Origin: Candidatus Hadersleviella danica
GTDB lineage: Bacteria; Chloroflexota; Anaerolineae; Promineifilales; Promineifilaceae
Assembly (NCBI GenBank): GCA_016711405.1
Contig: JADJSZ010000094.1
Location: 1 to 16,632, forward strand
DNA length: 16,632 nucleotides
Direction: 5' to 3'
Shown: piece by piece, positions 1 through 16,632 of the stretch
Position numbering within the stretch: position 1 is the stretch's first letter
Layout: each line of letters starts with the position of its first letter
The notes under the pieces: generated by a model
Told to the model about the DNA's origin: nothing
Database searches by the model: none
The model's input: only the letters and a program-made list of their open reading frames with translations
Translations under genes and position numbers: made by a program

Positions 1-138
1 CGTGCTATCCCATGACTTGCCCATAAATCCAAGTTCATAGGGTGGGTCGCAAACAATCGAATCAAAGTGATTGTCAGGGTATTTTTTTAGCACTTCGCGG
101 TTGTCCCCGTGGTGCAATGTGTAGCGGCTATTTTCCAT
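1..138 (-). CDS. DNA methyltransferase (N6-adenine/N4-cytosine, beta-class), N-terminal 46 codons only; the gene continues past the left edge
   Basis: The reverse complement of 1-138 translates to MENSRYTLHHGDNREVLKKYPDNHFDSIVCDPPYELGFMGKSWDST. This contains the catalytic motif IV 'DPPY' preceded by the hydrophobic run 'SIVC', the typical N-terminus of amino-MTases with the D12-class / beta domain order. The ATG is the complement of 136-138, with an AAGGAA Shine-Dalgarno 8 nt upstream. The six-frame track does not list it because it is under 60 aa inside the window. Confidence 0.75.
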   Translation of the reverse strand, partial: MENSRYTLHHGDNREVLKKYPDNHFDSIVCDPPYELGFMGKSWDST

Positions 139-164: not shown

Positions 165-356
165 TTATTCGACACCCATCTTGGCAAACATGCCGTGCCC
201 GACTGCTATCTCTGCACCGCTCTTGGGGCAGTCGAAAAGCAGGCGGCGCAATTCTTTCACCGTCATTTCTTGGTCGGAGATGTGAAAGAGAATTTGGCGC
301 AGTTCGTCGGCCGTGATGGTGGCAACTTCTTGGGTTTGGGGGTTGATTGTGGACAT
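165..356 (-). CDS. hypothetical 63-aa protein, immediately upstream of and co-oriented with the methyltransferase gene (probable two-gene operon)
   Basis: ATG with a GAGG Shine-Dalgarno ('gcgaggtatcATG' on the minus strand). Its stop lies 26 nt before the MTase ATG. A + strand ORF (156..428) overlaps it, but the minus-strand ORF has the better start context and fits the operon layout. No recognisable domain. Confidence 0.4.
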   Translation of the reverse strand: MSTINPQTQEVATITADELRQILFHISDQEMTVKELRRLLFDCPKSGAEIAVGHGMFAKMGVE

Positions 357-375
357 GATACCTCGCTTGCTGATA

Positions 376-391
376 CTGAACTTTCTGAACT
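376..391. repeat. CTGAACT-tt-CTGAACT direct repeat (9-bp phasing). Further copies at 472-478, 4976-4982 (opposite strand), 5230-5236/5239-5245 and 5337-5343
   Basis: Read directly from the sequence. All copies lie in the two non-coding regions and overlap the predicted -35 or spacer elements. Confidence 0.5.
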
Positions 392-461
392 ATCTAATCA
401 TACCAAAACGTTACATACAGGGCAATAGGCACGGCCGTTTTGCCCCAAATTGGTTTAGTAT

Positions 462-490
462 TTTACAAATCCTGAACTATTCTATACAAT
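462..490 (+). promoter_or_regulatory. putative sigma70-type promoter for the packaging operon (-35 TTTACA 462-467, 17-nt spacer, -10 TACAAT 485-490)
   Basis: Hexamers found by eye in the AT-rich divergent region. The spacer contains a CTGAACT copy (472-478). Confidence 0.3.
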
Positions 491-540
491 AAAAAGCGGT
501 AGACGGAAAAAATGAGGCAGAATCCAGTTACAGGGGCGGT

Positions 541-1254
541 GTGTTGGGTCACATCGCCCCACTTCCTATGCCACGGCCGACCTTTTTAGGCGGCCGTTTC
601 TTTTCCCCACACCCTATGGCAGATGCAGGGCGACCCCCCACCATAACCGATGACAGAATACTCAAGCGACTGCTTGAGGCGTTTGAGTGGGGCATGAACC
701 AAAAGGACGCGGCAAGGTACGCGGGCATTGCGCCCCAAACGCTATCGGCCGCGTTACGGCGCGGCCGTGAAGCGGACGAAGAAATGGCCGAGGGCGGGGC
801 GCGGGCTGGCAAAAAGCCGCTTACCAAAGATTGGCCATATGTGAGTTTTTACAGGCGGGTGGGGGAGGCGCGGTCAGTGATGGCGGCGCAAGCGGGGAAA
901 GCGGCCGTGAAACTGCTCAAGGGCGGCCGTAAGGTGACTGAGGTCACAACCGAGATTTACAGCATCATGGAAGCGGGGGAGGGCAAAGAACCCGTATTCG
1001 TGAAAGTAAAAGAGACGCGGGAAAGGCGGGTAGAAGAGTTACCCCCCGATTCGGCCATGACCCGCTTTGTCTTACAGCACAATTGGGGCAAGAGCGACGG
1101 CGCAAGCACGGCCGAAAGCGAGGGCGAGGGCGACACCATCAGCCCCGAACAGGCCGAGCAAGCCATGCAGAAACGGGCGGTGCAAGCGTTCGACGCTTTG
1201 CACTTGTTTGACGGCCTTGTGGAAGGGCAAGGGGAGGATGATACCTATGAGTAG
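541..1254 (+). CDS. terminase small subunit (putative). The start is uncertain: GTG at 541 with an AGGGG Shine-Dalgarno, or ATG at 616
   Basis: N-terminal HTH-like segment 'DDRILKRLLEAFEWGMNQKDAARYAGIAPQTLSAALRRG'. Acidic C-terminus. Its stop overlaps the start of the large terminase (ATGAGTAG). Position is immediately upstream of terL. Confidence 0.55.
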   Translation: MLGHIAPLPMPRPTFLGGRFFSPHPMADAGRPPTITDDRILKRLLEAFEWGMNQKDAARYAGIAPQTLSAALRRGREADEEMAEGGARAGKKPLTKDWPYVSFYRRVGEARSVMAAQAGKAAVKLLKGGRKVTEVTTEIYSIMEAGEGKEPVFVKVKETRERRVEELPPDSAMTRFVLQHNWGKSDGASTAESEGEGDTISPEQAEQAMQKRAVQAFDALHLFDGLVEGQGEDDTYE

Positions 1255-2702
1255 CCAACCACGAACCCCCACCAAACGCTTCCTGTTTCTGACCCAGCAC
1301 CTTGACTTGCCCCGCGCTTCGGGCGTTGACGATGCCCAATGGGAGCATTTTCAAGTGGCTCATTTGTGCGACGATGGGCAGTTCAGGATAGAGGACAAGA
1401 GCCGCCAAATTGCGTGGTCTTTTCTGGTGGCAATGGAAGCCACGGCCGAGGCCATTCTGGAAGGGCAAAGCTCCGTTTTCGTCTCTATCAATCTCGAGGA
1501 GGCCAGCGAAAAAATACGCTATGCCAAATCAGTTTTAGAGAACATCCAAAACTACAGGCTCCCCCAAATCATCCGCGACAACACTTTCGGCCTCGAGTTT
1601 GACAACGGGGCGCGGATTATGTCCCTGCCCTCGAGGGAGCCACGCGGCAAGGCGCGGATGAATGTCTACCTTGACGAGTTTTGTCACATCATGCGGGATA
1701 GGGCGATTTACTCAGCGGCCTTACCCATGATAAGCAAGGGCGGCCGTTTGCGGATTGGTTCAAGCCTGATGGGAGCGAGTGGGCAACATTGGGAAGTCAG
1801 CCAACAACGGTTACGGCCGTATCCGGGCTACACCCGCTCCGTAACCCCGTGGTGGAAAGTCAAGGCGTTTTCCAACGACGTGCGGACGGCTTACCAGCTT
1901 GCGCCCGAACATGCCCACGGCCGAGCGGGTGGAACGATTCGGCAACCAGCGCATTCGGGCAATTCACGACAACATGCACAGCGAAGATTTTCAACGCGAG
2001 TATGAATGTGTGTACGTGGACGAAACCAGCGCATGGTTCCCTTGGGAGGAGATTCAAGCCATTCAACAGCCCTCCCTCTACACGATTACGGCCGATACAC
2101 GGGGCGAAGCGGTGAGCAAGGCCATGAACGCCATAGCTGAGTTGAAAGCGGCCGTGACGCGGGGCGTGGTGGAAACGGCAATGGCCGTGGGCATAGACGT
2201 AGGGCGCACCCGCAACGCCACTGAAATCTTTGTGGTTGGTTGCACCACAACCGATACCTACCCCTTGCGCCTGACCCTCACCCTTGAAAATGCCAGTTTC
2301 GACACCCAGCTTGCGGTAGCGGCGGCCGTGTTCGACACCTTGCCCATTAAGAAAGGGTACATAGACCAGAACGGTATCGGCCGTAACCTTGCCGAGCGGC
2401 TCGAGAAACGCTTCCCCAGCAAGGTTGAGGGCGTGGATTTTACGGTGCAATCTAAAACGGTTTGGGCGACTGATGCAAAAATGCTTGCCCAACAACTCAA
2501 GGCCATTATCCCCGCTAACAGGGACTTGGCTTACCAGATTCATTCAATTAAGCGCACGATAACGGGCGCGAAAAACATGGTTTTCGACACCGACCGCACC
2601 GAAAAGCACCATGCCGATAAGTTTTGGGCATGGGCGTTGGCTCTTTCGGCCGCACGGGTCAAGGTCATGGTTCCTCGAGAATTTTCTAATCCAAGGCGGT
2701 GA
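1247..2702 (+). CDS. terminase large subunit (lambda gpA / Terminase_6-like), interrupted by an apparent +1 frameshift between about 1845 and 1905. Segment 1247..2005 is in frame 2 and 1845..2702 in frame 0
   Basis: The N-terminal half has the deviant P-loop 'DKSRQIAWS' (compare lambda gpA KSARVGYS) and a Walker B 'MNVYLDEF'. The C-terminal half has 'FQREYECVYVDE' and nuclease-domain acidic motifs 'AVGIDVGRT', 'GYIDQNGIG' and 'HHADKFWAWA'. The two halves are in different frames; frame 0 opens at 1845, directly after a TAA, at a CCCC run. The combined length is about 485 aa. SD GGAGG lies upstream of ATG 1247. Confidence 0.8.
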
Positions 2703-2706
2703 CAAG

Positions 2707-4144
2707 ATGATTGAAATTACAAAAGAGATGGATAAGCGGCTGATGGGCATGATAATGGGCGAAGTGGCCAATTACATGCAATCGGTTGCGCCCACTTTGA
2801 GCCAACGGCCGAAACTGGCCGCCATGCAATCCATTGGTGGCTACACGGGCGGGGCGATAAACCGCACAACGCACGGCGGCGATAGGGAGATTGATACCGT
2901 GCTGGGGCGCACAGCAACCGATTCGGCCACGTTTGATGTGTTTATGACGTGGTTCAAGCGCGACCCCGTGGCCAATGCCATGATTAGCAAGCCCGTATCG
3001 GCCACATGGCGACGGCCGCCCCAAATTACCGACGGGGATGCAAACGATACCCCGTTTTGCAAAGGCTGGAAGCAATTGGTCAAGCAAAAGAAGATTTGGA
3101 CAACGTTCCCCCGCCTTGACCGCCTCGCCATGTTGGGCAAGTACGCGGTTTTGCTCATTGGCTTTTCAGATGTCAAGAGCGACGCGGATTTAGCCACGGC
3201 CGTTAAGGAAAAGCAATTCAAGCGCGGTTTGGACGATGTCTACTTTTTGCGGCCGTATGGCGAAGACCAGATTAAGAAGATAACGAACAATGTTGACCCT
3301 TCCAGCCGTCGCTATGGCTTGCCCGAAACCTACACCCTCGTTGAAAGCATTGTCGTTTCCAGTGACGCGGCTCCTACCACCAAAGAGATAGATGTGCATT
3401 GGAGCCGTATCATTCACGCGGCCGATAGCACCATGCAAAGCGGCCTTGGAGGGGATTCCCTTTCTCTTGCCCGTCTTAGATGACCTCGAGGATTTGGCCA
3501 AGACCATTGGCGGCGCGGCTGAATCGGTTTGGCGGGCGAGTGGGCAAGATATTGTCATGGCCATGAATGAGGGCTATGAGTTCCCCACCGAAGCCGCCCG
3601 CGAAGATTTTACCGAGCAATTGCGCGACCGTGTCAATCAGCTTGTGCGGTCAATTATCACTACAGGCGGCAATCCCCAAATCGTTCACGCCACGGCCGTT
3701 GACCCGACGGGCATTGTGACCGCCATTTACAAGCGGCTTTCGGGCTACAGTGCCATCCCCTTGCGTATTCTGTTAGGGAGCGAGGCGGGGCGGCTGGCCA
3801 GTGACCAAGACGAAGGGAATTGGGCGGCGCACATTGCGGCGCGGCAAGTGGAGTATGCGGAGGATAGTATCTTGCGGCCGTTCATTGACCAGATGGTTTA
3901 CACGGGGGTATTGCCCGCGCCTGAGAGCGACGAAGGCTACGACGTGGGCACGTATGACCCCAAACACGACGCATGGATTTGGCCGAGCATTGAAGAAGCC
4001 AATGAAATGGAAAAAGCCGAAATTGCGGACAAGCGGGCGAGTGCCATGCAGAAAGCGGCCGATGTCGCGGCCGTCAACGGTTCCTTGGATGACAACGACG
4101 TGCGCGGCTTTGGCGGCTTGCCCCCCCGCGAAGATGAGGCGTAA
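2707..4144 (+). CDS. portal protein (probable; DUF1073 / HI1409-like by gestalt and position), interrupted by an apparent +1 frameshift near 3449-3453 (GGGG). Segment 2707..3483 is in frame 1 and 3392..4144 in frame 2
   Basis: It sits directly downstream of terL (stop 2702, ATG 2707 with a GGTGA Shine-Dalgarno). The two consecutive ORFs together give about 479 aa. The C-terminal part 'SAIPLRILLGSEAGRLASDQDEGNW...ILRPFIDQ' and 'GIPFLLPVLDDLEDLAKTIGGAAE' resembles portal C-terminal regions. The assignment rests on gene order and motifs, not on a search. Confidence 0.6.
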
Positions 4145-4147
4145 CCC

Positions 4148-4897
4148 ATGCCCACGCCTGACCTCTCATTCACCCCGCCCAACGACGGCGAAATAGCGGC
4201 CGATGTGCGCCAATCGTTTGCCCGTGTGGAAACGATTGGCCGCGTCATGGCTCTATGGGGCAAGTACGCCTCGTTGAAAGACTTGCCCCGCTATCCGCTC
4301 GACCCGCAAACGGGGCAATTCGTGCAACCAAACGGCCGCTTGCTCCCCTTTGCCGTGGTTCGTGCCAATGTGCAACGGCTGGCCAATGGCGTAGGGCGGG
4401 GCGAATTGGGGGAGATGACCAAGCGGCTCCAAAAGGGCAACGTGCCCCTTGCCGAGTGGTACAGCACCATGCGCGATACCAGCCGTGACGCTTATTTAGC
4501 GGCCGTGCTGGTTGCCTTGGGCGGGATTAGCCGACTGACCGCCACAACGCCCCAAGCGTGGGAGGGGGTGTACCAGCTTGCCGAGTTTCAAGAGCGCAAG
4601 CTCAGGGATATGGCCGTGGATTTGCAACGGGATTGGGAGGGGAAAAACACGGCCGCTTACAGCCGGGCAATCATGTACGGCGCGGCCGTGTATGGCGTGT
4701 TTGGCAACAGCAACCGCTTCTTAATGGACATTTTGGGCTTTAACCAAGAGCGGCGGGTGTTGGCTCCAGCCGAGCATTGTACCGATTGTGTGGGCTATGC
4801 CAGCGTGGGCTGGCGGCCGATAAATTCACTCCCCCCCATTGGCGATAGCAAGTGCCTATCCTATTGCCATTGCAGTTTTAGATTTAGGCGGGTGTAA
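4148..4897 (+). CDS. head morphogenesis protein, phage Mu F / SPP1 gp7 family (minor capsid protein)
   Basis: Position after the portal. C-terminal signature 'EHCTDCVGYASVGW...PPIGDSKCLSYCHCSF' matches the C-x2-C ... PP ... C-x3-C-x-C motif of Mu-F-like proteins. 'LAEWYSTMRD' lies in the core. Confidence 0.7.
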   Translation: MPTPDLSFTPPNDGEIAADVRQSFARVETIGRVMALWGKYASLKDLPRYPLDPQTGQFVQPNGRLLPFAVVRANVQRLANGVGRGELGEMTKRLQKGNVPLAEWYSTMRDTSRDAYLAAVLVALGGISRLTATTPQAWEGVYQLAEFQERKLRDMAVDLQRDWEGKNTAAYSRAIMYGAAVYGVFGNSNRFLMDILGFNQERRVLAPAEHCTDCVGYASVGWRPINSLPPIGDSKCLSYCHCSFRFRRV

Positions 4898-4917
4898 CTG
4901 GCCAGACTACGCCCGCC
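4887..4917 (+). terminator. hairpin overlapping the gp7 stop codon (stem GGCGGGTGTA / TACGCCCGCC, 11-nt loop), not followed by a U-tract. It may be a weak terminator or an RNA-stability element
   Basis: Inverted repeat read from the sequence. The missing T-run is why confidence is low. Confidence 0.2.
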
Positions 4918-5228
4918 TCCCATATATAGATTGTTCCCCTGCTTGTTGCCGTTGTCACCTCCTTTTGCAGTGAAGTACAGTTCAGATTGTAGCACAAAAT
5001 AAACCAGTCTATGTCTATCAACCACTTAAACCCCCTGACCGCCTCCGATATTTTCAAGCGTGTAACCAATGCCGATAGCGGCCGTGCCTACATGGTGCAA
5101 GCTGACGTATGTGGTCATTGATGGGCAAATCATGGTGCAAACCGTCGCCCCCCACCGCTTCGAGATGAAACAAGGGGTAAGCATGTACGCCGTGTTGGGC
5201 GAGCTGACCGACGCGCTAAATCCTGCTC

Positions 5229-5258
5229 TTGAACTTTCTGAACCGACTGCGGTATAAT
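5229..5258 (+). promoter_or_regulatory. putative promoter P1 (-35 TTGAAC 5229-5234, 18-nt spacer, -10 TATAAT 5253-5258)
   Basis: Near-consensus hexamers. The -35 element and spacer are themselves built from a TTGAACT-tt-CTGAACC direct repeat. Confidence 0.35.
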
Positions 5259-5280
5259 CTTTTTTCAGTCTCCTCTCTGC

Positions 5281-5328
5281 GGCCGTTGGTTAGTGACCCA
5301 AAACTAGCCAACGGCCTATTTTTTTTGG
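5281..5328 (+). terminator. rho-independent terminator T1 (13-bp stem 5281-5293 / 5304-5316, 10-nt loop, then TATTTTTTTTTT)
   Basis: GGCCGTTGGTTAG ... CTAGCCAACGGCC is perfectly complementary apart from one G-U pair, followed by a 10-T run. It lies only about 20 nt downstream of the P1 -10 element. Confidence 0.7.
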
Positions 5329-5345
5329 CTATTTTTCTGAACTTC

Positions 5346-5374
5346 TTGACCTGTTTTTGATTTTCGTTTACACT
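5346..5374 (+). promoter_or_regulatory. putative promoter P2 (-35 TTGACC 5346-5351, 17-nt spacer, -10 TACACT 5369-5374), with a CTGAACT copy abutting the -35 element
   Basis: Hexamers and spacing read from the sequence. The predicted transcription start is about 5381. Confidence 0.35.
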
Positions 5375-5458
5375 ACTATGCGATAGGCAAATTGTTTGCC
5401 ACCAATCGAATAACACCAATTCCCGTTAGGCCGTGAATCGGCCGTCTACCACCCAAAA

Positions 5459-5502
5459 GGCGGGCACACAACCAAAAAGTGTTGTGTGCCCGCCTTTTTT
5501 TT
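5459..5502 (+). terminator. rho-independent terminator T2 (perfect 14-bp stem GGCGGGCACACAAC / GTTGTGTGCCCGCC, 8-nt loop, 8 Ts), ending 11 nt before the ATG of the scaffold gene
   Basis: Perfect inverted repeat plus TTTTTTTT, read directly from the sequence. Confidence 0.8.
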
Positions 5503-5512
5503 GTTTCCACCT

Positions 5513-6709
5513 ATGGAACCCGAACAAACAGGCGAATCCACAACCCCAGAGCAAGAGCAAACGGCCACCGAAACCCATGCGGCCGTCGCCCTTGCCGCGC
5601 CCGTCATGGTTAACCATGCCCTGCAAATCAACCGCGCCGCCATCCGCTACGAAGCGTTCAATGGCGACAACTTCATGGTTGCCCCGTTCGTGGGCGCGGT
5701 CGAAGGGGTAATGAACGGGGCACTGATTTTGGCCAGCGAGTTAGAGCAGAGCGCACCGCTCTACCCCGATAGCCCTGTTGTTGTAGGCCATCCCACGGTA
5801 AACGGTGCGCCTATCAGTGCCAAGGGTCAGCCCATCCCCAAAATCGGCCGGGTCTACAACACGGCCGTGGATGGTGACAGGTTGACGGGCGAGTTATGGG
5901 TGAGCCAACGCGCCGCCCAATCTGCCCCCCGTGGCCAAGAGGTACTAGACAACCTCGCTACGGGCAAGGTCAACGAAGTGAGTTGGGGCTGGTGGATGCA
6001 AGCCGAGCCAGCCCAAGGGGAGTTTAAGGGCAAGCCCTACGCCGTCATCGGCCGCAATTTTATCCCCGACCACTTAGCCATTTTGTTAGATGTGCCCGGC
6101 GCGTGTTCTGTAGCCGACGGCTGTGGAACGCTCCGAGCTAATCAAGCCCTGACCGTCAACTGCGATTGCGGTTGCTCTGGGCATGTCGTCAATCCCAATC
6201 CATCAATCACAGGAGAAAAAACTATGACGGGTAACACCCAAGTAGACGCTCCCATTGAAGAGGACGAGGTTGTTGACGCTGTGGAAACGAGTGGGGCGCA
6301 AATCCCCGCCCCGACTGCCCCAGCGCAACCCGATTCCGCTTCTTTGGAAGTGAACCAAGTGCAAGCGGTGAAAGCCGAGCTTGCCAAACTGGCTGATTCG
6401 TTTGCCAAAACAAATCAGTTGGTTGCCAACCAGAACAAGCTCATTGAAGAGCTGTTAGGCGAACGGAAAACCCAAAAGCAACAGGCGCGTGAAGCGCAAA
6501 TTGCTGAACTGGCCACCTACGCCAATCAGCCGTTCAGCGTGGCCACGTTGAAAACTTTCAGCGACGAAGCCCTTGCTGAACTCGAGGGCAAGTTCCGCCC
6601 CGCTTACATGGCGGGCATGGGCATGAGCATCAACGGCCGCACCACGACCGCTGACCCCAACATGGGCTATGCGCCCGCCGCGCCCTATCTCTTTGGGGAG
6701 GTGAAGTAA
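5513..6709 (+). CDS. putative scaffolding / prohead-protease-like protein (DUF2213-like gestalt)
   Basis: Acidic Pro/Glu/Thr-rich N-terminus. A central domain ('VSWGWWMQAE', 'FIPDHLAILLD'). A Cys cluster 'CSVADGCGTLRANQALTVNCDCGCSGH'. A low-complexity Pro/Ala linker. A C-terminal coiled-coil-like Ala/Glu/Lys/Gln region typical of scaffolds. It lies just upstream of the capsid gene. There is no Shine-Dalgarno; the start codon follows T2. Confidence 0.5.
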   Translation: MEPEQTGESTTPEQEQTATETHAAVALAAPVMVNHALQINRAAIRYEAFNGDNFMVAPFVGAVEGVMNGALILASELEQSAPLYPDSPVVVGHPTVNGAPISAKGQPIPKIGRVYNTAVDGDRLTGELWVSQRAAQSAPRGQEVLDNLATGKVNEVSWGWWMQAEPAQGEFKGKPYAVIGRNFIPDHLAILLDVPGACSVADGCGTLRANQALTVNCDCGCSGHVVNPNPSITGEKTMTGNTQVDAPIEEDEVVDAVETSGAQIPAPTAPAQPDSASLEVNQVQAVKAELAKLADSFAKTNQLVANQNKLIEELLGERKTQKQQAREAQIAELATYANQPFSVATLKTFSDEALAELEGKFRPAYMAGMGMSINGRTTTADPNMGYAPAAPYLFGEVK

Positions 6710-7144
6710 ATGACTACCACAACGGGTAATCCCTACACCATTTTCCTGACAGGCCGCGACCGCACCGTTTTTGACGAAGTGGCCGTGACCGATGCCGTGG
6801 TTAAGCCCGGCATGTTCTTGGCTCGCACAGCCACAGGCGCACGGCCGCAAAACGTAGCCGCCGCCGCCGCTCCCTCGCTGGTTGCCACCGAAGCCACCGT
6901 ATTCGAGGGCACGATTGAAACCGAATTAGCCGTGGGCGAACGGGTTCAGTTTGGCAACGCCTCGGGTTGTCACGTCTACGCCATCTTGCTTTCGGGCGAG
7001 AACGTGGCCGCTGGTGCGAAGTTGACCCACGACGGCACGGGCAAATTGGCCGCCCTCGGGGTTGACGAAGTTTGGATTGCGACCGCCTTAGAAGCGGTAG
7101 ACGCAAGCGCGGCGGATAAACGAATCCGCGTGGAGGTGCTGTAA
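6710..7144 (+). CDS. small head-associated protein (possibly a decoration or auxiliary capsid protein), 144 aa
   Basis: GGAGGTG Shine-Dalgarno. The start overlaps the upstream stop (TAAATG). It lies between the scaffold and the major capsid gene. Function is inferred from position only. Confidence 0.45.
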   Translation: MTTTTGNPYTIFLTGRDRTVFDEVAVTDAVVKPGMFLARTATGARPQNVAAAAAPSLVATEATVFEGTIETELAVGERVQFGNASGCHVYAILLSGENVAAGAKLTHDGTGKLAALGVDEVWIATALEAVDASAADKRIRVEVL

Positions 7145-7146
7145 CC

Positions 7147-8136
7147 ATGAACGCTGAATTTGCAACCATTGAACTGGTGTCCCAATTGGACATCAACAAA
7201 ATGCGCCCCATCGCTGGCTTCCATGCCAACGCGCTTTTGCGGCAAGACGATTGGCGCACGATTGACGACGCGGTCGTGAAAGTCGCTCGCCAAAACCTGA
7301 GTGTTTTGGATGACCTCGCCCGTTTCGGCCTTGTACGGCCGCCCGCTGGTTTGGGGCTGATGTTCAGTTCCTACGAACAACAAAGCGAACTGACCACGGC
7401 CAACGTGGACATGGCGGCCGACACCCGCGCCGAAATGTCCAACCTCAACCACACGACCATCAACATTCCTGTGCCCATCATCCACAAAGAGTTTTCTCTG
7501 AACGCTCGGGTGCTGATGAATAGCCGCATGAACCGCATGGAAGGGTTGGACGTTAGCCACGCCGAAAGCTCTGCCCGGCGCGTGGCCGAAGCCATCGAGG
7601 ACATGATTATCAACGGCGTTTCGTTGACCGTGAACGGTTCCACCATTCAGGGCTTGACCAACGCTACCAATCGTGTCACCGACACCGCTACCAACTTTGG
7701 CGGCGGGGCGTGGAGTACGGCGGGGAACGCCTACAAAACCATCAACGGCATGATTGCTGGCATTGAAAACAAAGGTTTCTATGGCCCTTATGGGGTCTAC
7801 GTGGCCAACAACTTGTGGAGCAAGCTCCGCAATCTGATTAGCACCGAATCGGGCAAGTCTGAAATGGCCGCCCTCATGGAAAACCTTGGTTTGGCCACAG
7901 GCGGGCAAGTCGCCTACGTCAAGCCCTCCCGCTCCCTTGCCGCTGGCACGGCCGTCTTGTTCCAACTCACCAGTGATGTCATTGACATTGCCACGGGCGT
8001 TGGCATGACCACCGTCCAATGGGAAGAGCAAGGCCGCTTGACCAGCAATTTCCGCGTCATGGCGGCGATGGCGCCTCGTGTCAAGTACGACGCTTCCAGC
8101 AATTGCGGTGTGGCTCATGCCACAGGTGCGCTCTAA
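7147..8136 (+). CDS. major capsid protein (HK97-fold, DUF2184 / encapsulin-like type, inferred)
   Basis: 329 aa. Strong GGAGGTG Shine-Dalgarno. It lies immediately after the scaffold and small head protein. The composition and length are typical of this MCP class. The long antisense ORF 6976..8118 covering it is low-complexity and rejected. Confidence 0.7.
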   Translation: MNAEFATIELVSQLDINKMRPIAGFHANALLRQDDWRTIDDAVVKVARQNLSVLDDLARFGLVRPPAGLGLMFSSYEQQSELTTANVDMAADTRAEMSNLNHTTINIPVPIIHKEFSLNARVLMNSRMNRMEGLDVSHAESSARRVAEAIEDMIINGVSLTVNGSTIQGLTNATNRVTDTATNFGGGAWSTAGNAYKTINGMIAGIENKGFYGPYGVYVANNLWSKLRNLISTESGKSEMAALMENLGLATGGQVAYVKPSRSLAAGTAVLFQLTSDVIDIATGVGMTTVQWEEQGRLTSNFRVMAAMAPRVKYDASSNCGVAHATGAL

Positions 8137-10630: not shown

Positions 10631-10926
10631 TCTGGCAGGTATGGCGCAAGGTATCCCACGGCAAAGGTTCAATGCCCTTCCCTTGGGATACCGCCCGCCT
10701 CTGCCTGAATATGCAGAACGGGGAAGTAATCCACTTCCCCGCTGGCACATACAACAAGCAGGTTGCTACCGAACACGGCCGTCAGCAATTGGAACTAATG
10801 GAACTGACCTACCAAGCGCACCGTGTTTTTGTCGAAATGGGGCAACCAAACAAACAATCTGACAAGACCGCGCTCGAGTTTCTAAAAATCGCTCGAGAAG
10901 TCGAGAAAACCCGTCAACATGGCTAA
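10268..10926 (+). CDS. tail assembly chaperone G-T fusion, made by a -1 programmed ribosomal frameshift at 10621-10627 (join 10268..10627, 10627..10926)
   Basis: The -1 frame (frame 1) is open from the slippery site through track ORF 10672..10926 with no stop (KVIWQVWRKVSHGKGSMPFPWDT...). Its stop overlaps the tape-measure ATG at 10919. This layout is conserved in long-tailed phages. Confidence 0.65.
10621..10627 (+). promoter_or_regulatory. -1 programmed ribosomal frameshift slippery heptamer A_AAA_AAG (dnaX type)
   Basis: In the zero frame, cc[a aaa aag] taa. Read directly from the sequence. Confidence 0.7.
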
Positions 10927-13900
10927 CGAAAAAGACACCTTAGAGATAGAAGTCAAGGCCACGTTGCAAGGCGACGCGGCGTTCAAGTCTATTCTGAGTG
11001 ACCTTGAGAAAATCCGCAAAGAAGCGGATAAGGTCAAGCAATCGGCCGCTGGCATTGGCGGGGCGAGTGGGAGCATTAAGAGCGCGGCCACGGCCTTGGG
11101 CGAGGTTGAATCAGCCGCAAAAAAGGCGGGCAAGGGCGTAGGGGAAGCCGAAAAATCCACCGAATCAGCAGGTAGCGCGTTTACCAAAATGAGTGGGCTG
11201 GCCACGGCCGCATGGGCGGCGGCGGGCGCGGCCGTGACTGCGTTCGTGGTTGATTCGGTCTCCCAATTCATGGCCTTTGAGAAGGGCATGGCCGAAGTCT
11301 TTACCCTGTTGCCGGGCATATCAGGCGCGGCAATGGACGCAATGACGGCCGATGTGCGCGCCTTTGCCCTTGAATCGGGGCGACTGCCTGACGAAGTTGT
11401 GCCCGCCCTCTACCAAGCTATCAGCGCGGGCGTTCCCCAAGCCAACGTATTTGACTTTATGAAAGTGGCCAGCGACGCGGCTTTAGGCGGCGTGACTGAC
11501 CTCGAAACGGCCGTGGACGGTATCACGTCGGTGGTCAATGCGTATGGTTCAGAGGTAGTTAGCGCACAACAGGCCAGTGACATCATGTTCACGGCCGTTA
11601 AGCTGGGCAAAACCGACTTTAGCCAATTATCCGCCTCCCTCTTTAATGTCATCCCCACGGCCGCCGCCTTGGGCGTTTCGTTTGAGGACGTAGCGGCGGG
11701 GTTAGCGGCCGTGACTGCTCAGGGCACACCTACCAGCGTCGCCACAACCCAAATGCGGCAACTGTTTGTGGAACTGAGTAAGGAAGGGGGAAACACCAGC
11801 CGCATCTTTAAGGAAATAGCGGGCGTAGGCTTTAAGGAATTTTTAGCGCAAGGCAACAGTCTACAGGACGGCTTGCAACTCCTTGAAGAGTACGCCGCCA
11901 AAACCAACGTTGGTATCAACGACCTCTTTGGTTCGGTGGAGGCGGGCAGTATCGCCCTTGGTTTGACAGGGCAAGGGACTGAGAAATTCACGGCGGCCGT
12001 GCAAGAGTTTGGCAACGTGACGGGCGCAACAGGGCGGGCGGCCGATTTGATGGGCGAAACCACGGCGCAATCAATGGCGCGGGCAAGCGCGGCCGTCAAC
12101 GAACTCAAATTGATGTTGGGCGAATCACTCGCCCCTGCTTTGGCACAAACGGCCGAAGCTGTGTTAAGCCTTGCCAACATCGCCCTCCCTTGGCTGGCAA
12201 GCAACTTGAACAAGTGACCGTTGACAGGCGCGTTTGCCGACGGCATGAGCATCATAGCGGGTGAAAGCGAAGCTGTGGAGCGAACCGTAGCAGGTGTGGC
12301 CAATGTGGTAGGCGACAACGCGCTTTCGGCCGCTGAAAAGATGGCGCAATTGGACGCGGCCATTAGCAACGCGGGCACGGGCGGCCGTGTGTTTGGCCAC
12401 GCTGAAGAGATTGAAGCGGGCATGGTGCAGGTGGCTAAGGCCGTTGTCACGGGTGCAACCTCTTACGAAGATGCAATTGCCCGCATGAAAGAAGCGGGAT
12501 TCGAGATGGACGCGGAGGGCATGAGCTTTACCAGCCCTCACGAATGGGAAGCGTTTCAAGCGGCATGGGCACAAGTGGAGCAGGGCGCGGTCTTTTCGGC
12601 CTCCCAAGTCATGTCCCGCCTTGTGGACGTGAGCGGGGCGTATGCCCACACGGGCAAAGAAGCCGATGACGCGGCCGTGTTTATCACCGACTTGACCGAG
12701 GAGTTGGAAAAGAACGGCCGTGCTTACGAACAAGCGACTGAGGCCACGGCCGCCAATGAGCAGGTCAACGAACGCATTGCCAAGGTCAATGAAGCCGCGT
12801 TAAGCACCAGCGAAGCCAAAAACCAATTACTGAAAGAGGAAGCCCTAAGCGCGGGCAAAACGGCCGAATCCATTGCCGAATACGAAGCGGCAACCAAAGC
12901 GGCTTTGGCCGCTACACAGGCGTTTGTGCGGGATTCGACAGGCGCGTTTAACAAGTCGGGCAACATCTTTGGCGACGCTTTCCAAGAGCTTGAAAAGGCC
13001 GAAAACGCGCAAATCAATCTGAACGCGGGCACGGTATGGGCGTACAACCAAGCCTCTAAAGAAATAACCGAAATCAGCGGCCAATTAGCGGCCGATTTGA
13101 GCGAAGACCAGCAAAAAGCGTTCCAAGAAATCTTGGGCACGGTAGAGGAAGGGTCAGCCGAATGGCTGAGCGCCTACAACGCTTTGCAAGGCGATTTAAG
13201 CGACAGTGCCCGGCAGGGTCTTGTGGCGCAAATGGCTGAATTGCAAGGGGAGGCAGGCGAGTTAGCGGGCGGCGGGTTAGAAGCGGTGTACGGGGCTGAC
13301 ACACGGGCGGCCGAAGAAGCCCGCGCCGCCATCGAGGAAGCCAATCAAGCCATCATTGCCAGTTACAAGGCGACCACGTTTGAGGCGTTGCTGGCTCAAA
13401 CGGGCGTGACCGAAAGCACGTTAGCTTTCGGGCGTTCAATTGGGCATTATGACCGAGGCAGAGGCGGCGGCGCGGCTCGAGTTTACCAATACCACCCTCG
13501 CCCTGACCACGCTGGCCAGCTCGCAAGAATTTGCGGCCGCTTCCACCCGTGACCAAGCGGAGGCCGCGCAACTGCTTATTTTGGGCTACGCCTCTTCAGC
13601 GGAGGAAGCGGCCACAATGGCGGCCTCCATATCCGACAAGGGCGGCTTATCCGAATCCCTGTTAGCGGCCACAAGCCAAACCGAACAACTGAATCTTGAA
13701 TTAGCCAAGCTCGAGGGCGACAAAGAAAGCAAGGTCAGCGTGAGCGTGGACGGCATTGAATCGTTGCGCGAAGCCGTAGGGCTGACCCAGCAAATGGCGG
13801 GCGGCGGGCGCAAAGACGGCGCGGCCACGGCCGCTTTGCCCGAAGCCCGTGCCGTGGGCGGGGACATCAGCGCGGGCAGTCCCCTACATGGTAGGGGAGC

Positions 13901-14594: not shown

Positions 14595-16632
14595 ATGACC
14601 ACCAACGGCGTAGTAGTGCAAGCGGATAGCGTCCGCGTTGATTTTAAGGCAACCCCCACGGGCGACGTATTGGCCACGACCACGGCCGTCTACAACCCCA
14701 GTGGAACCCAACGCCTGAGCATGGCGGGCGATTGGTCTTTTACGATGCCGCTGGCCGCTTATGACCCTGACACGATGGGCACGGGTAAATACGCCTTTGG
14801 CTTTGCCGCCTTCCCCAGCGTGACCAATTACCCGCTGTTTGCGGGGCGCATAGAAGAGGGGGATGACGACCTAAACCCAGATATTCACACGGTCACGATT
14901 AGCGGCATGGATATGTTGGGGGAACTGACCAAAAAAGAGATAGCCCACGCCGAAATTTGGGCAATTGCAACCGAAATACCAGTGTCGGTGTTGGGCGAAC
15001 GCTGGTACGCCTACGAAAACGAAACGGTTATCCCCAAGCCAGAGGCCAATGATGGCGATACAGGAACCGAGGCGGGCTTTATTTTGATTCGGTCGTTAAC
15101 GATTCCCCGACCCCAACAACCCCCGACCTTCCCCGAAGAGGCGGCGGCCGAAGAGGATAGGCTGATTCAGCACGTCAAGTTTATCTATTTTGGGCACAGT
15201 GCCCCGTTTTGGCGGATTGACCTAAACATCGCGACCGACATTGTGCAATCGGTTGCCTCGACCATTTTTATAGAGTTGTTCAACGCAGAGGGGCAATGGG
15301 AATCCCGCGCCATTGACACCAATACAACCATCGTGGCGGGCAAGCCATTTGCCCAAAGCGGGTACATTGAATGGGCAAAGGCTGAATTAGAACACCCCAT
15401 ACGTCACGACGGCATTACTCAGTATTGGGGGCGGATTGGGGTAAGCGGCGCGGCGTTGTCGCTGTTCAAAATCAAAGAAACCACCGTGCGCACAATGGGG
15501 CCACTGGCAACCGATGTGGAAACGTTGGTGGATGATTACGCCCCTGCAGGATGGTCTTTGGCCTCGGGCAGTGAAACGGGCACGGCCGACGGCGGCCGTC
15601 AAATCTACATTGCTGGCCAAACAGCGTTAGCCGCCCTTGTTGACCTCGCCAAACGCACGGGGGAGATGTTCGCCCTCATTGGCACGAACCAAATCAAGTG
15701 GTTGGCCTCGCCCATTTCCAGCGGCATAACGGCCAAAGAAGCCCCCGAGGGCGGCGACACAAGCACCTCTGTCTACATTAGCCGCTTGAATCGCACCCGT
15801 AGCCGCCGTGACATTATCACCCGCGCCTACTTGCGCGGCGGCGGCAATGACCCCGTGGCACAGGTAACGCTTTCGCCCTTGGACGGGCTGGACGTGTCGG
15901 CCTATTTGGGCGCGGATTACGCCGTGAGTGGCGACTGGTTAATCAACACGGCCTTAGAGGCGACATTAGCCACCGAACTGCCTAAAACCGTCAACTTCCC
16001 CAACATCGTAGCCGTTGGCGGCGGCACGGGGCGCAATCGCCAAAACGCGCTTGAGTTGTTGCGCTTCGGGCGTGGCCTTTTTGGAACGCAACAAAGACGA
16101 GGCGCGGCATTACACGGCCGATATTGTTGGCTTGCGCTCTTCCTCAGTGCATCCGGGCATGACCATGAACGTCGTGGCCAACATTTATGACGCGGACGGG
16201 GGAGTGACCGAGGCCATAGACGAAGATTTAGTCATTGTCGAAATGACCCAAAGCATGGGCAATGACGGCATTTTGTCATGGCGGATGGTCTTTGGAACCA
16301 TTGCCGAGCATGTGCCCACGGCCGCATTAGCAGAAGCGGGGCAAATTGCCCTAAACCAACAGAAAATGAACACCCCCCAAGCGGGCAGTAGCAACTTTGC
16401 CGTGGGCGGTTTGGCTGTGGGTAGTTCATCGGGCACGGGAGGCGGGGGAGGCGGCGGCACGGCCGAGCTTGACGCGCACATGGCCGAAACCTTCACGGCG
16501 CATCAGATACCGCTCCAAATTGACAACAAAATTGCGACCCATGCGGCGTTGACCACCACGGCGCACGGCATCCCCAGCCAGATTGATACCAAGATTGCGG
16601 CACATAGTGCTATTGAAGATGCGCACCATGAC
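14595..16632 (+). CDS. tail tip / tail fibre protein, continuing beyond the right edge. It has an apparent +1 frameshift at the TTTTT run 16078-16082: frame 0 up to that point, then frame 1 to the window end
   Basis: The frame-0 ORF 14595..16190 ends in junk (...TQQRRGAALHGRYCWLALF...). The +1 frame from about 16081 reads as good protein ('LERNKDEARHYTADIVGLRSSSVHPGMTMNVVANIYDADGGVTEAIDEDLVIVEM...') and is open to position 16632. It ends in a poly-Gly tract and tandem ~21-aa repeats 'TAHQIPLQIDNKIATHAALTT / TAHGIPSQIDTKIAAHSAIED'. Confidence 0.6.

Follow-up and report, generated by a model that had tools for sequence, protein, structure and literature searches.

We analyzed a stretch of 16,632 nucleotides from Candidatus Hadersleviella danica (contig JADJSZ010000094.1 of assembly GCA_016711405.1; hereafter the window) and focused on a short repeated motif, CTGAACT, which recurs at predicted promoters and which an initial annotation had proposed as an operator for a phage regulator. 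From its genes, assigned by PHROG and Pfam scans, the window covers the arm of an uncultured, siphovirus-like phage that encodes packaging, head and tail functions. At its left end a leftward operon carries a DNA methyltransferase fragment (positions 1–138, minus strand) and is led by an open reading frame (ORF) of 63 amino acids (63-aa ORF; 165–356, minus strand). Divergent from this operon lies the small terminase gene, terS (616–1254, plus strand; ATG at 616), and further along the plus strand a small gene (5011–5257) precedes a protease/scaffold gene (DUF2213; 5513–6709; ATG at 5513). The regulatory DNA upstream of terS and of the protease/scaffold gene is where the repeats described below are found.

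Promoters and start sites in this work are predictions from a consensus scan only. The top three rightward promoters in that scan, which match the consensus at 9–10 of 12 positions, are the terS promoter (TTTACA-17-TACAAT, 462–490, 10/12), P1 (TTGAAC-18-TATAAT, 5229–5258, 10/12) and P2 (TTGACC-17-TACACT, 5346–5374, 9/12). On the minus strand, P_L (TTGCCC-17-TATGAT with a TG, 397–425) is the predicted promoter of the 63-aa ORF/methyltransferase operon. Motif copies at these promoters, which we number S1 to S5, share a recurrent arrangement. S1 is a tandem pair, CTGAACT-tt-CTGAACT (376–391, plus strand; core GAAC-N5-GAAC), which on the minus strand covers about −1 to +15 of P_L, 20 bp ahead of the ATG of the 63-aa ORF. 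S2 is a single site, CTGAACTAT (472–480, plus strand), in the spacer of the terS promoter at about −25 to −17; its heptamer (472–478) ends 6 bp ahead of the −10 element. S4, TTGAACT-tt-CTGAACC (5229–5244, plus strand), falls within the final codons of the small gene and constitutes the −35 element and upstream spacer of P1. In S5, CTGAACT-tc-TTGACCT (5337–5352, plus strand; core GAAC-N5-GACC), the first unit ends 2 bp upstream of the P2 −35 element and the second, degenerate unit, TTGACCT, is that element itself. The remaining copy, S3, is reversed (AGTTCAG on the plus strand, 4979–4985); it overlaps the −10 element of a weak plus-strand promoter upstream of the small gene (TTGTCA-18-TACAGT, 4952–4981), and, read on the minus strand, it comes right after an extended −10 element, TGcTACAAT (4986–4994). 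Every copy in the regulatory regions thus overlaps a consensus promoter element or a predicted start site, and seven of the eight regulatory copies are oriented along late transcription.

The pairs share the core GAAC-N5-GA(A/C)C, whose two units repeat in direct orientation at a period of 9 bp, at 378–390 (S1), 5231–5243 (P1) and 5339–5351 (P2). A fourth such pair in the window, at 10792, is coding, leaving three of the four in promoter regions. Written in this form, the three pairs bear out the 9-bp phasing claimed by the initial annotation, and its overlap with three promoters holds as well, with S2 in the terS spacer, S4 as −35 and spacer of P1 and S5 at the P2 −35. The exact plus-strand copies it gave at 376–391, 472–478 and 5337–5343 are present, and so are AGTTCAG and TTGAACT-tt-CTGAACC, although these lie at 4979–4985 and 5229–5244 and not at 4976–4982 and 5230–5245. 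The pair at 376–391 had been recognized, but its overlap with the P_L start, the clearest repressor-type placement, had been overlooked.

Exact CTGAACT occurs eight times in the window, against 1.07 expected, and none of 200 shuffles attained this number. Six copies are on the plus strand (376–382, 385–391, 472–478, 5337–5343, 6504–6510 and 6576–6582) and two on the minus strand (1380–1386 and 4979–4985). Five of the eight fall within about 1.3 kb of non-coding DNA, where 0.074 are expected (dinucleotide shuffles; 0/2000 attained five). Since positions 16191–16632, counted here as non-coding, turned out to be frameshifted coding sequence, the non-coding enrichment is stronger than these figures state. 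Coding DNA holds three copies against about one expected, close to chance, as the initial annotation had it, which had not listed the coding ones at 1380–1386, 6504–6510 and 6576–6582. Because the motif is not avoided in coding DNA, we reject both site avoidance there and a role as target of the phage methyltransferases.

We compared the window with relatives that are all metagenome contigs, reached solely through exact protein look-ups; identities refer to a 249-aa protein (4148–4897, plus strand) unless otherwise stated. L005–L008 are 97% identical to the window, L002 and L003 88% and L004 85%, the last being a 17.5-kb contig covering the whole region. L026, from the same Joint Genome Institute (JGI) sample as L002, has a protease 91% identical to that of the window, and L025 has a TerS 100% identical to the window's. 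Across the window, L002, L004 and L026, TCTGAACT (8:0, intergenic versus coding) and CTGAACTA (7:0) are among the top intergenic-enriched 8-mers, and short, promoterless gene junctions in these four sequences carry no copy of the motif. A chance-level intergenic frequency, or loss of the repeats in relatives that keep the promoters, had been named at the outset as speaking against an operator; the scan of the window and its relatives shows enrichment in regulatory DNA, and the relatives retain the motif where the promoters are retained.

The control regions upstream of terS in the window and L004 are only 47% identical (123/259), and TCTGAACT of S1b (8/8) and CTGAACTAT of S2 (9/9) are among the few conserved islands within them; the P_L −10 element is conserved at five of six positions. 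Beside the leftward gene start, L004 carries CTGGAAC-aat-CTGAACT, a positional analogue of S1 with the same GAAC-N5-GAAC core, so that an S1-type pair is placed over the start site in two diverged lineages; in L002, S1 reads CTGAACT/CTGAACC. These L004 sequences and the P2 core account for the exactly two GAAC-N5-GAMC pairs in that contig, both at homologous regulatory places. The L004 terS promoter, at the homologous place, has differing hexamers (TTGCAA-17-TAAAAT), with CTGAACT at the unchanged spacer position and the 6-bp gap to the −10 element kept. There S2 is matched by a second arm across the −35 element in a perfect 9-bp inverted repeat, TAGTTCAGA-N11-TCTGAACTA; in the window that second arm is degenerate (GGTTTAG, 452–458). 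L025 carries TTGAACT at S2, from which we write the first base of the motif as Y.

At the second regulatory region, the S4 pair is identical in L005 and L026, and L004 has TTGAGGCTCCCGAACC in its place; the pair, the P1 −10 element and the terminator t1 (described below) are jointly present in the window, L005 and L026 and jointly absent from L004. P2 is conserved in all four of these lineages, each of which keeps the core GAAC-TTCTT-GACC, and the L004 copy, CTGGAACT, has one extra G upstream of the core. S3 sits in a non-coding insertion of about 110 bp (4898–5010) that is found in the window and L005–L008 only and is absent from L026 and L004. Adjoining S3, this insertion also carries CACCTCCTT, which we take to match the 3′ end of 16S rRNA and whose complement reads as a perfect Shine-Dalgarno sequence, followed by no suitably placed start codon. 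Related sequence occurs elsewhere in L004, where positions 2834–3010 hold two tandem units of the form TGGTACAAT-CTGAA(C/T)-about 20 nt-CCTCC-terminator. L002 carries the whole control region twice (4047–4347 and 6199–6499), from the start of the small ORF through the repeats, terS promoter and leader to the first codons of terS. The two copies adjoin different N6/N4 methyltransferase genes, as would be seen had a methyltransferase cassette come in along with its control region.

Each rightward promoter is followed, within about 25–125 nt, by an intrinsic terminator that ends just ahead of an ATG without a Shine-Dalgarno sequence. In the terS leader, folding predicts a hairpin with a U-tract, t_terS (573–604, plus strand; leader z = −4.0), which ends 12 nt ahead of the terS ATG and serves no upstream operon. 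About 25 nt past the P1 start lies t1, a 14-bp stem with T8 (5281–5326, plus strand; z = −5.5), and at the end of the roughly 125-nt P2 leader lies t2, a perfect 18-bp stem with T8 (5455–5506, plus strand; z = −6.8), ending 7 nt ahead of the protease/scaffold ATG. The latter two are the sole strong plus-strand terminators in the 16.6 kb. At the position equivalent to t_terS, the L004 leader has a longer stem (13–14 bp) of unlike sequence, followed by TTTCTCTTT; t2 is conserved in L004, L005 and L026. Both terS and the protease/scaffold gene start 7–12 nt past the terminator U-tract without a Shine-Dalgarno sequence (CACCCTATGG and CCACCTATGG; 604–618 and 5506–5515), and neighboring genes, such as that of the large terminase, have clear GGAGG-type sites. 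Given a terminator after each rightward promoter, one of them without an upstream operon to serve, late-gene expression very probably needs conditional read-through of the leader terminators. The initial annotation had overlooked all three terminators and had therefore not considered antitermination.

The leaders of terS, P1 and P2 share no RNA motif that could act in a nut-like manner. An RNA-level role for the repeats is ruled out by this and by their placement, upstream of the predicted starts at the terS promoter, P1 and P2, yet antisense in the 5′ untranslated region of P_L. P1 itself would yield an RNA of about 60 nt with a C/U-rich, anti-Shine-Dalgarno-like 5′ end, UCUCCUCUCU, and a strong terminator (5259–5326), in a region that the window shares with L005 and L026 and that L004 lacks. 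In L004, the tandem units at 2834–3010, with extended −10, CTGAA(C/T), CCUCC and terminator, close the early operon. On sequence features, both the short P1 RNA and these units are candidate phage small RNAs. The P2 leader (5375–5512) is conserved in all four lineages and contains, besides t2, a small hairpin of CGGCCG-type repeats; the window alone has a 14-nt insertion in it (5394–5407) that duplicates CACCAAT. An Rfam scan of the whole window returned chance-level matches only, and none for the promoter leaders.

We next consider which protein might read the repeats. The initial annotation had put forward the 63-aa ORF. This ORF belongs to a real protein family, with 60 representatives at E ≤ 1e-3 and an internal duplication in which (I/M)T-x-x-ELRxxLF occurs twice; one representative, P0127, is a protein of 2246 aa with 19 such ELRxxLF stretches. 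It has no Pfam or PHROG family above threshold. SAP/HeH matches are faint (7 of 42 homologues), as is a match to HTH_20, and the AlphaFold model has a pLDDT of 63.5 and two short helices, with no match in the Protein Data Bank by fold or sequence. The ORF is not found in the 17 kb of L004, where the motif is kept beside a different methyltransferase-like gene, and two homologues (L028 and L029) sit in other gene contexts with no such motif nearby. The weak fold evidence, its absence from L004 and the motif-free contexts of its homologues leave it unsupported as the regulator. Helix-turn-helix (HTH) proteins of the relatives are lineage-specific: an HTH_17 (excisionase-type) protein is found in the L002 leftward operon only, with no counterpart in the available L004 DNA, and L004 has a 96-aa Xre-like protein. 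A controller (C) protein of a restriction-modification system acting at a C-box was considered, as a small ORF precedes a methyltransferase, and was set aside: no C-protein-type HTH was detected, and the repeats are direct, not paired palindromes.

We favor the reading that a sequence-specific DNA-binding regulator recognizes YTGAACY and, most likely, occludes the promoters; on sequence grounds we put the chances of this reading at about even. The putative regulator is most probably phage-encoded, by a gene outside the window. In such a scheme, two protomers would bind head-to-tail, side by side on the 9-bp direct repeat: on the S1 pair over the predicted P_L start, on S4 over the −35 element and spacer of P1, and on S5 over the P2 −35 element and the DNA turn upstream, with S2 occupied in the terS spacer. 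The bound regulator would exclude sigma region 4 or prevent open-complex formation, silencing the promoters together, and the late genes would additionally need read-through of the leader terminators past the rightward promoters. All sites lie inside the RNA polymerase footprint and the four near-consensus promoters should fire unaided, so negative action is most likely; the match of 9–10/12 to consensus likewise favors negative control over activation. As expected of an operator, the motif is over-represented in promoter regions relative to the rest and is conserved beyond the non-coding background in three or four lineages (8/8 and 9/9 positions versus 47%). In its general form, a cis-regulatory site that overlaps promoters and serves a trans-acting phage regulator, the initial proposal is the best-supported explanation, backed by the intergenic enrichment, by this conservation and by the joint absence of the P1 pair, its −10 element and t1 from L004; no binding protein was found.

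Several points weigh against this reading. No cognate DNA-binding protein was identified in the window or in about 12 kb of upstream DNA from the relatives, and a repressor of the late promoters leaves the terminator after each promoter unexplained. The whole consensus scan returned 12 promoter-like sites where 7.8 are expected. P1 and P2 each have a motif unit as their −35 hexamer, so that the overlap may partly reflect similarity between the motif and TTGACA-like sequences. The L004 copy at P2, CTGGAACT, and TTGAACT at S2 in L025 indicate that the outer heptamer positions are not strictly required, and the conservation rests on small counts in three or four independent lineages, some of them very close.

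The terminators open another reading, in which a Q-like phage antiterminator would use the repeats as a loading site to join RNA polymerase, at late promoters that are constitutive, and make the polymerase transcribe past the leader terminators, as in the PR′-QBE-tR′ cassettes of lambdoid phages, the copy over P_L simultaneously shutting off the leftward operon. This is possible, if unlikely. For 21Q the binding element is the 6-bp sequence TGAGCA repeated directly between −35 and −10, equivalent bases of the two copies falling at −21 and −13; a pause element, a terminator and the late genes come next (PMC6606751; bioRxiv 10.1101/651190). The window resembles that lambdoid cassette in that its near-consensus late promoters contain direct repeats of 6–7 bp with an 8–9 bp period and are separated from the first late gene by an intrinsic terminator (t_terS, t1 and t2, each just ahead of an ATG without a Shine-Dalgarno sequence), with structural genes next; S2 and the P1 pair occupy the equivalent promoter interval. 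The persistence of the terS leader terminator in L004 as a structure of different sequence, with no upstream operon to serve, argues in the same direction, as do the standing of t1 and t2 as the only strong plus-strand terminators and the lack of a common nut-like RNA motif in the leaders. The fit is incomplete, however. The single site at terS lies between −35 and −10, as does the P1 pair, which reaches into the −35 element, and the P2 pair lies on and upstream of that element; the register to the −10 element varies, with core 5′ ends at about −23 (terS), −34/−25 (P1) and −42/−33 (P2). The −10-like pause element, TAnnnT, is missing from the first 40 nt downstream of the −10 at the terS promoter, P1 and P2 alike, both in the window and in L004. 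The genes that precede the terS promoter are, in the window, L002 and L004, the leftward 63-aa ORF and methyltransferases and not Q, the flanking ORFs of the relatives gave no Q-family match in Pfam or PHROGs, there are three cassettes and not one, and P_L and the promoter at 4979, neither followed by a terminator, carry copies too. A more novel variant, rather unlikely in our estimate, holds that the repeats load a new, non-lambdoid family of processive antiterminators: the three cassettes (terS, P1 and P2) would gate genes for packaging and the head with no sigma-dependent pause element, which lambdoid Q requires, and the same protein would shut the divergent methyltransferase operon at its start site. 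If true, such terminator gating would extend promoter-loaded antitermination beyond the lambdoid phages.

Three further explanations were weighed. The copies might be a by-product of promoter-module paralogy with no trans-acting factor, the motif resembling −35-like TTGAAC/TTGACC and the sequence after extended −10 elements. TTGAACT and TTGACCT are indeed −35 elements of P1 and P2, several copies directly follow TGnTAyAAT (4986–4994 in the window; 2834 and 2938 in L004), P1 and P2 have the 12-mer TGAACTT(T)CT(T)GA in common, and by our estimate a 14-nt exact repeat is expected about 0.5–1 times by chance in 16.6 kb. We nevertheless find paralogy improbable: S2 is conserved at 9/9 positions against a 47% background in a spacer without base-specific sigma-70 contacts, S1 lies downstream of a start site, and CTGAAC agrees with TTGACA at three of six positions. 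There is also no consistent −10 partner at a fixed distance downstream of the copies, which rules out the −35 element of an alternative, ECF-like (GAAC) sigma factor. The grouping of three copies 140–240 bp upstream of terS would fit recognition sites for the terminase small subunit. In the R sites of lambda cosB and in SPP1 pacL, repeats recognized by TerS are placed either inside the small-terminase gene or shortly ahead of it. TerS shows a weak N-terminal HTH signal, and its N terminus is 50% identical between window and L004, with the putative recognition helix conserved. Here the repeats are not confined to the vicinity of terS: equally good pairs lie 4.6–4.7 kb downstream at P1 and P2 and another copy at 4979 (the whole set spanning 4979–5352), related units in L004 (2834–2954) lie about 3 kb upstream of terS, and the exact overlap with promoter hexamers is left unexplained, making cosB- or pac-type sites quite improbable. 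Very improbable, finally, is a site for a host regulator, such as a LexA-type repressor with GAAC half-sites, that would put prophage promoters under the influence of host physiology. LexA boxes typically have GAAC/GTTC half-sites; they read CGAAC-N4-GTTCG in Bacillus and, as a direct repeat, GTTC-N7-GTTC in Caulobacter (PMC9578287). Against this, the spacing is N5 and not N7 in all direct-repeat pairs, the L004 inverted repeat GTTCAG-N13-CTGAAC is divergent, unlike the convergent N4 geometry, and no prophage copy of the phage was found in 185,579 species genomes.

Beyond the regulatory regions, the window encodes, all on the plus strand, the large terminase (1247–2702), portal (2707–4144), a decoration-like protein (6710–7144), the major capsid protein (7147–8136) and, from 8148 onward, tail genes including the tape measure. 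Frameshifts split the large terminase, portal, small gene, tape measure and distal tail protein (sites at 1899–2005, 3392–3483, 5069–5121, 12217–12221, 13440–13552 and 16185–16632). In the relatives these are single ORFs, of 476 aa for the large terminase, 477–480 for the portal, 78–81 for the small gene, 1085 for the tape measure and 1612 for the distal tail protein; the window thus reflects either an error-prone assembly or a decaying prophage. No close relative was found among INPHARED phages (searched as DNA), IMG/VR (two proteins and one DNA pattern) or GTDB genomes, and exact look-ups with the window's 249-aa, 63-aa and capsid proteins led to no source contig. The closest INPHARED major-capsid match has 34% amino-acid identity, and JGI metagenomes gave solely relatives at 28–44% identity, without the CTGAACT motif and without the CGGCCG excess described next.

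The window contains 92 copies of CGGCCG at a median spacing of 159 bp, roughly ten times the composition-based estimate. They occur in the context D-CGGCCG-H, favor codon phase 1 (27:9:3) and also lie in terminator stems. GATC, GGGCCC, CCGCGG, GCCGGC, CCCGGG, AGGCCT, GGATCC and GCATGC are each absent from the window, and CCGG occurs 12 times. The excess is common to the close relatives L002, L004, L005 and L026 and is not seen in the distant L009–L024. The pattern is reminiscent of an iterated palindrome of the HIP1 type, together with strong avoidance of restriction sites; we found no match for it in the literature.

For an uncultured phage clade that has no close cultured relative, the motif is a tangible entry point to the study of gene regulation: it defines four co-regulated promoters, as predicted, and a testable 16-bp probe for their regulator. 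A phage operator motif is in itself an ordinary, already known kind of element, and if the repeats are a plain repressor operator they are a routine though clean example; the promoter-repeat-terminator cassettes are the sole aspect that could be unusual. Among known systems, the repressor operators and stoperators of mycobacteriophage L5 and Cluster A are asymmetric 13-mers in more than 20 copies, their orientation tied to transcription (PMC9283540). Like them, the motif is an asymmetric site that recurs at several promoter regions within a single phage, those of the structural-gene arm among them, and seven of its eight regulatory copies point along late transcription. Unlike them, the sites are short, mostly paired at 9 bp and limited to promoter regions, with no series of copies in short intra-operon gaps of the window, L002, L004 or L026; the P_L copy is antisense to transcription, and no repressor gene was found.

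The late activators RinA, LtrC, ArpU and Alt of Gram-positive phages reportedly act on the promoter upstream of terS, and the control point described here is likewise directly upstream of terS and governs a packaging/morphogenesis operon. Activator-dependent promoters usually match the consensus poorly; here the hexamers match it at 9–10/12 and the sites overlap the core promoter. Pfam and PHROG scans of the window and of the relatives' flanking ORFs detected no member of these families. Lambda CII binds a TTGC-N6-TTGC direct repeat straddling the −35 element, and P2 Cox and 186 Apl bind tandem direct-repeat boxes in divergent switch regions. Although the period here is 9 bp and not 10–11, and no homologous protein was found, the window has in common with these systems short head-to-tail repeats at and around the −35 element and a divergent region, where one protein could repress one promoter and affect the other.

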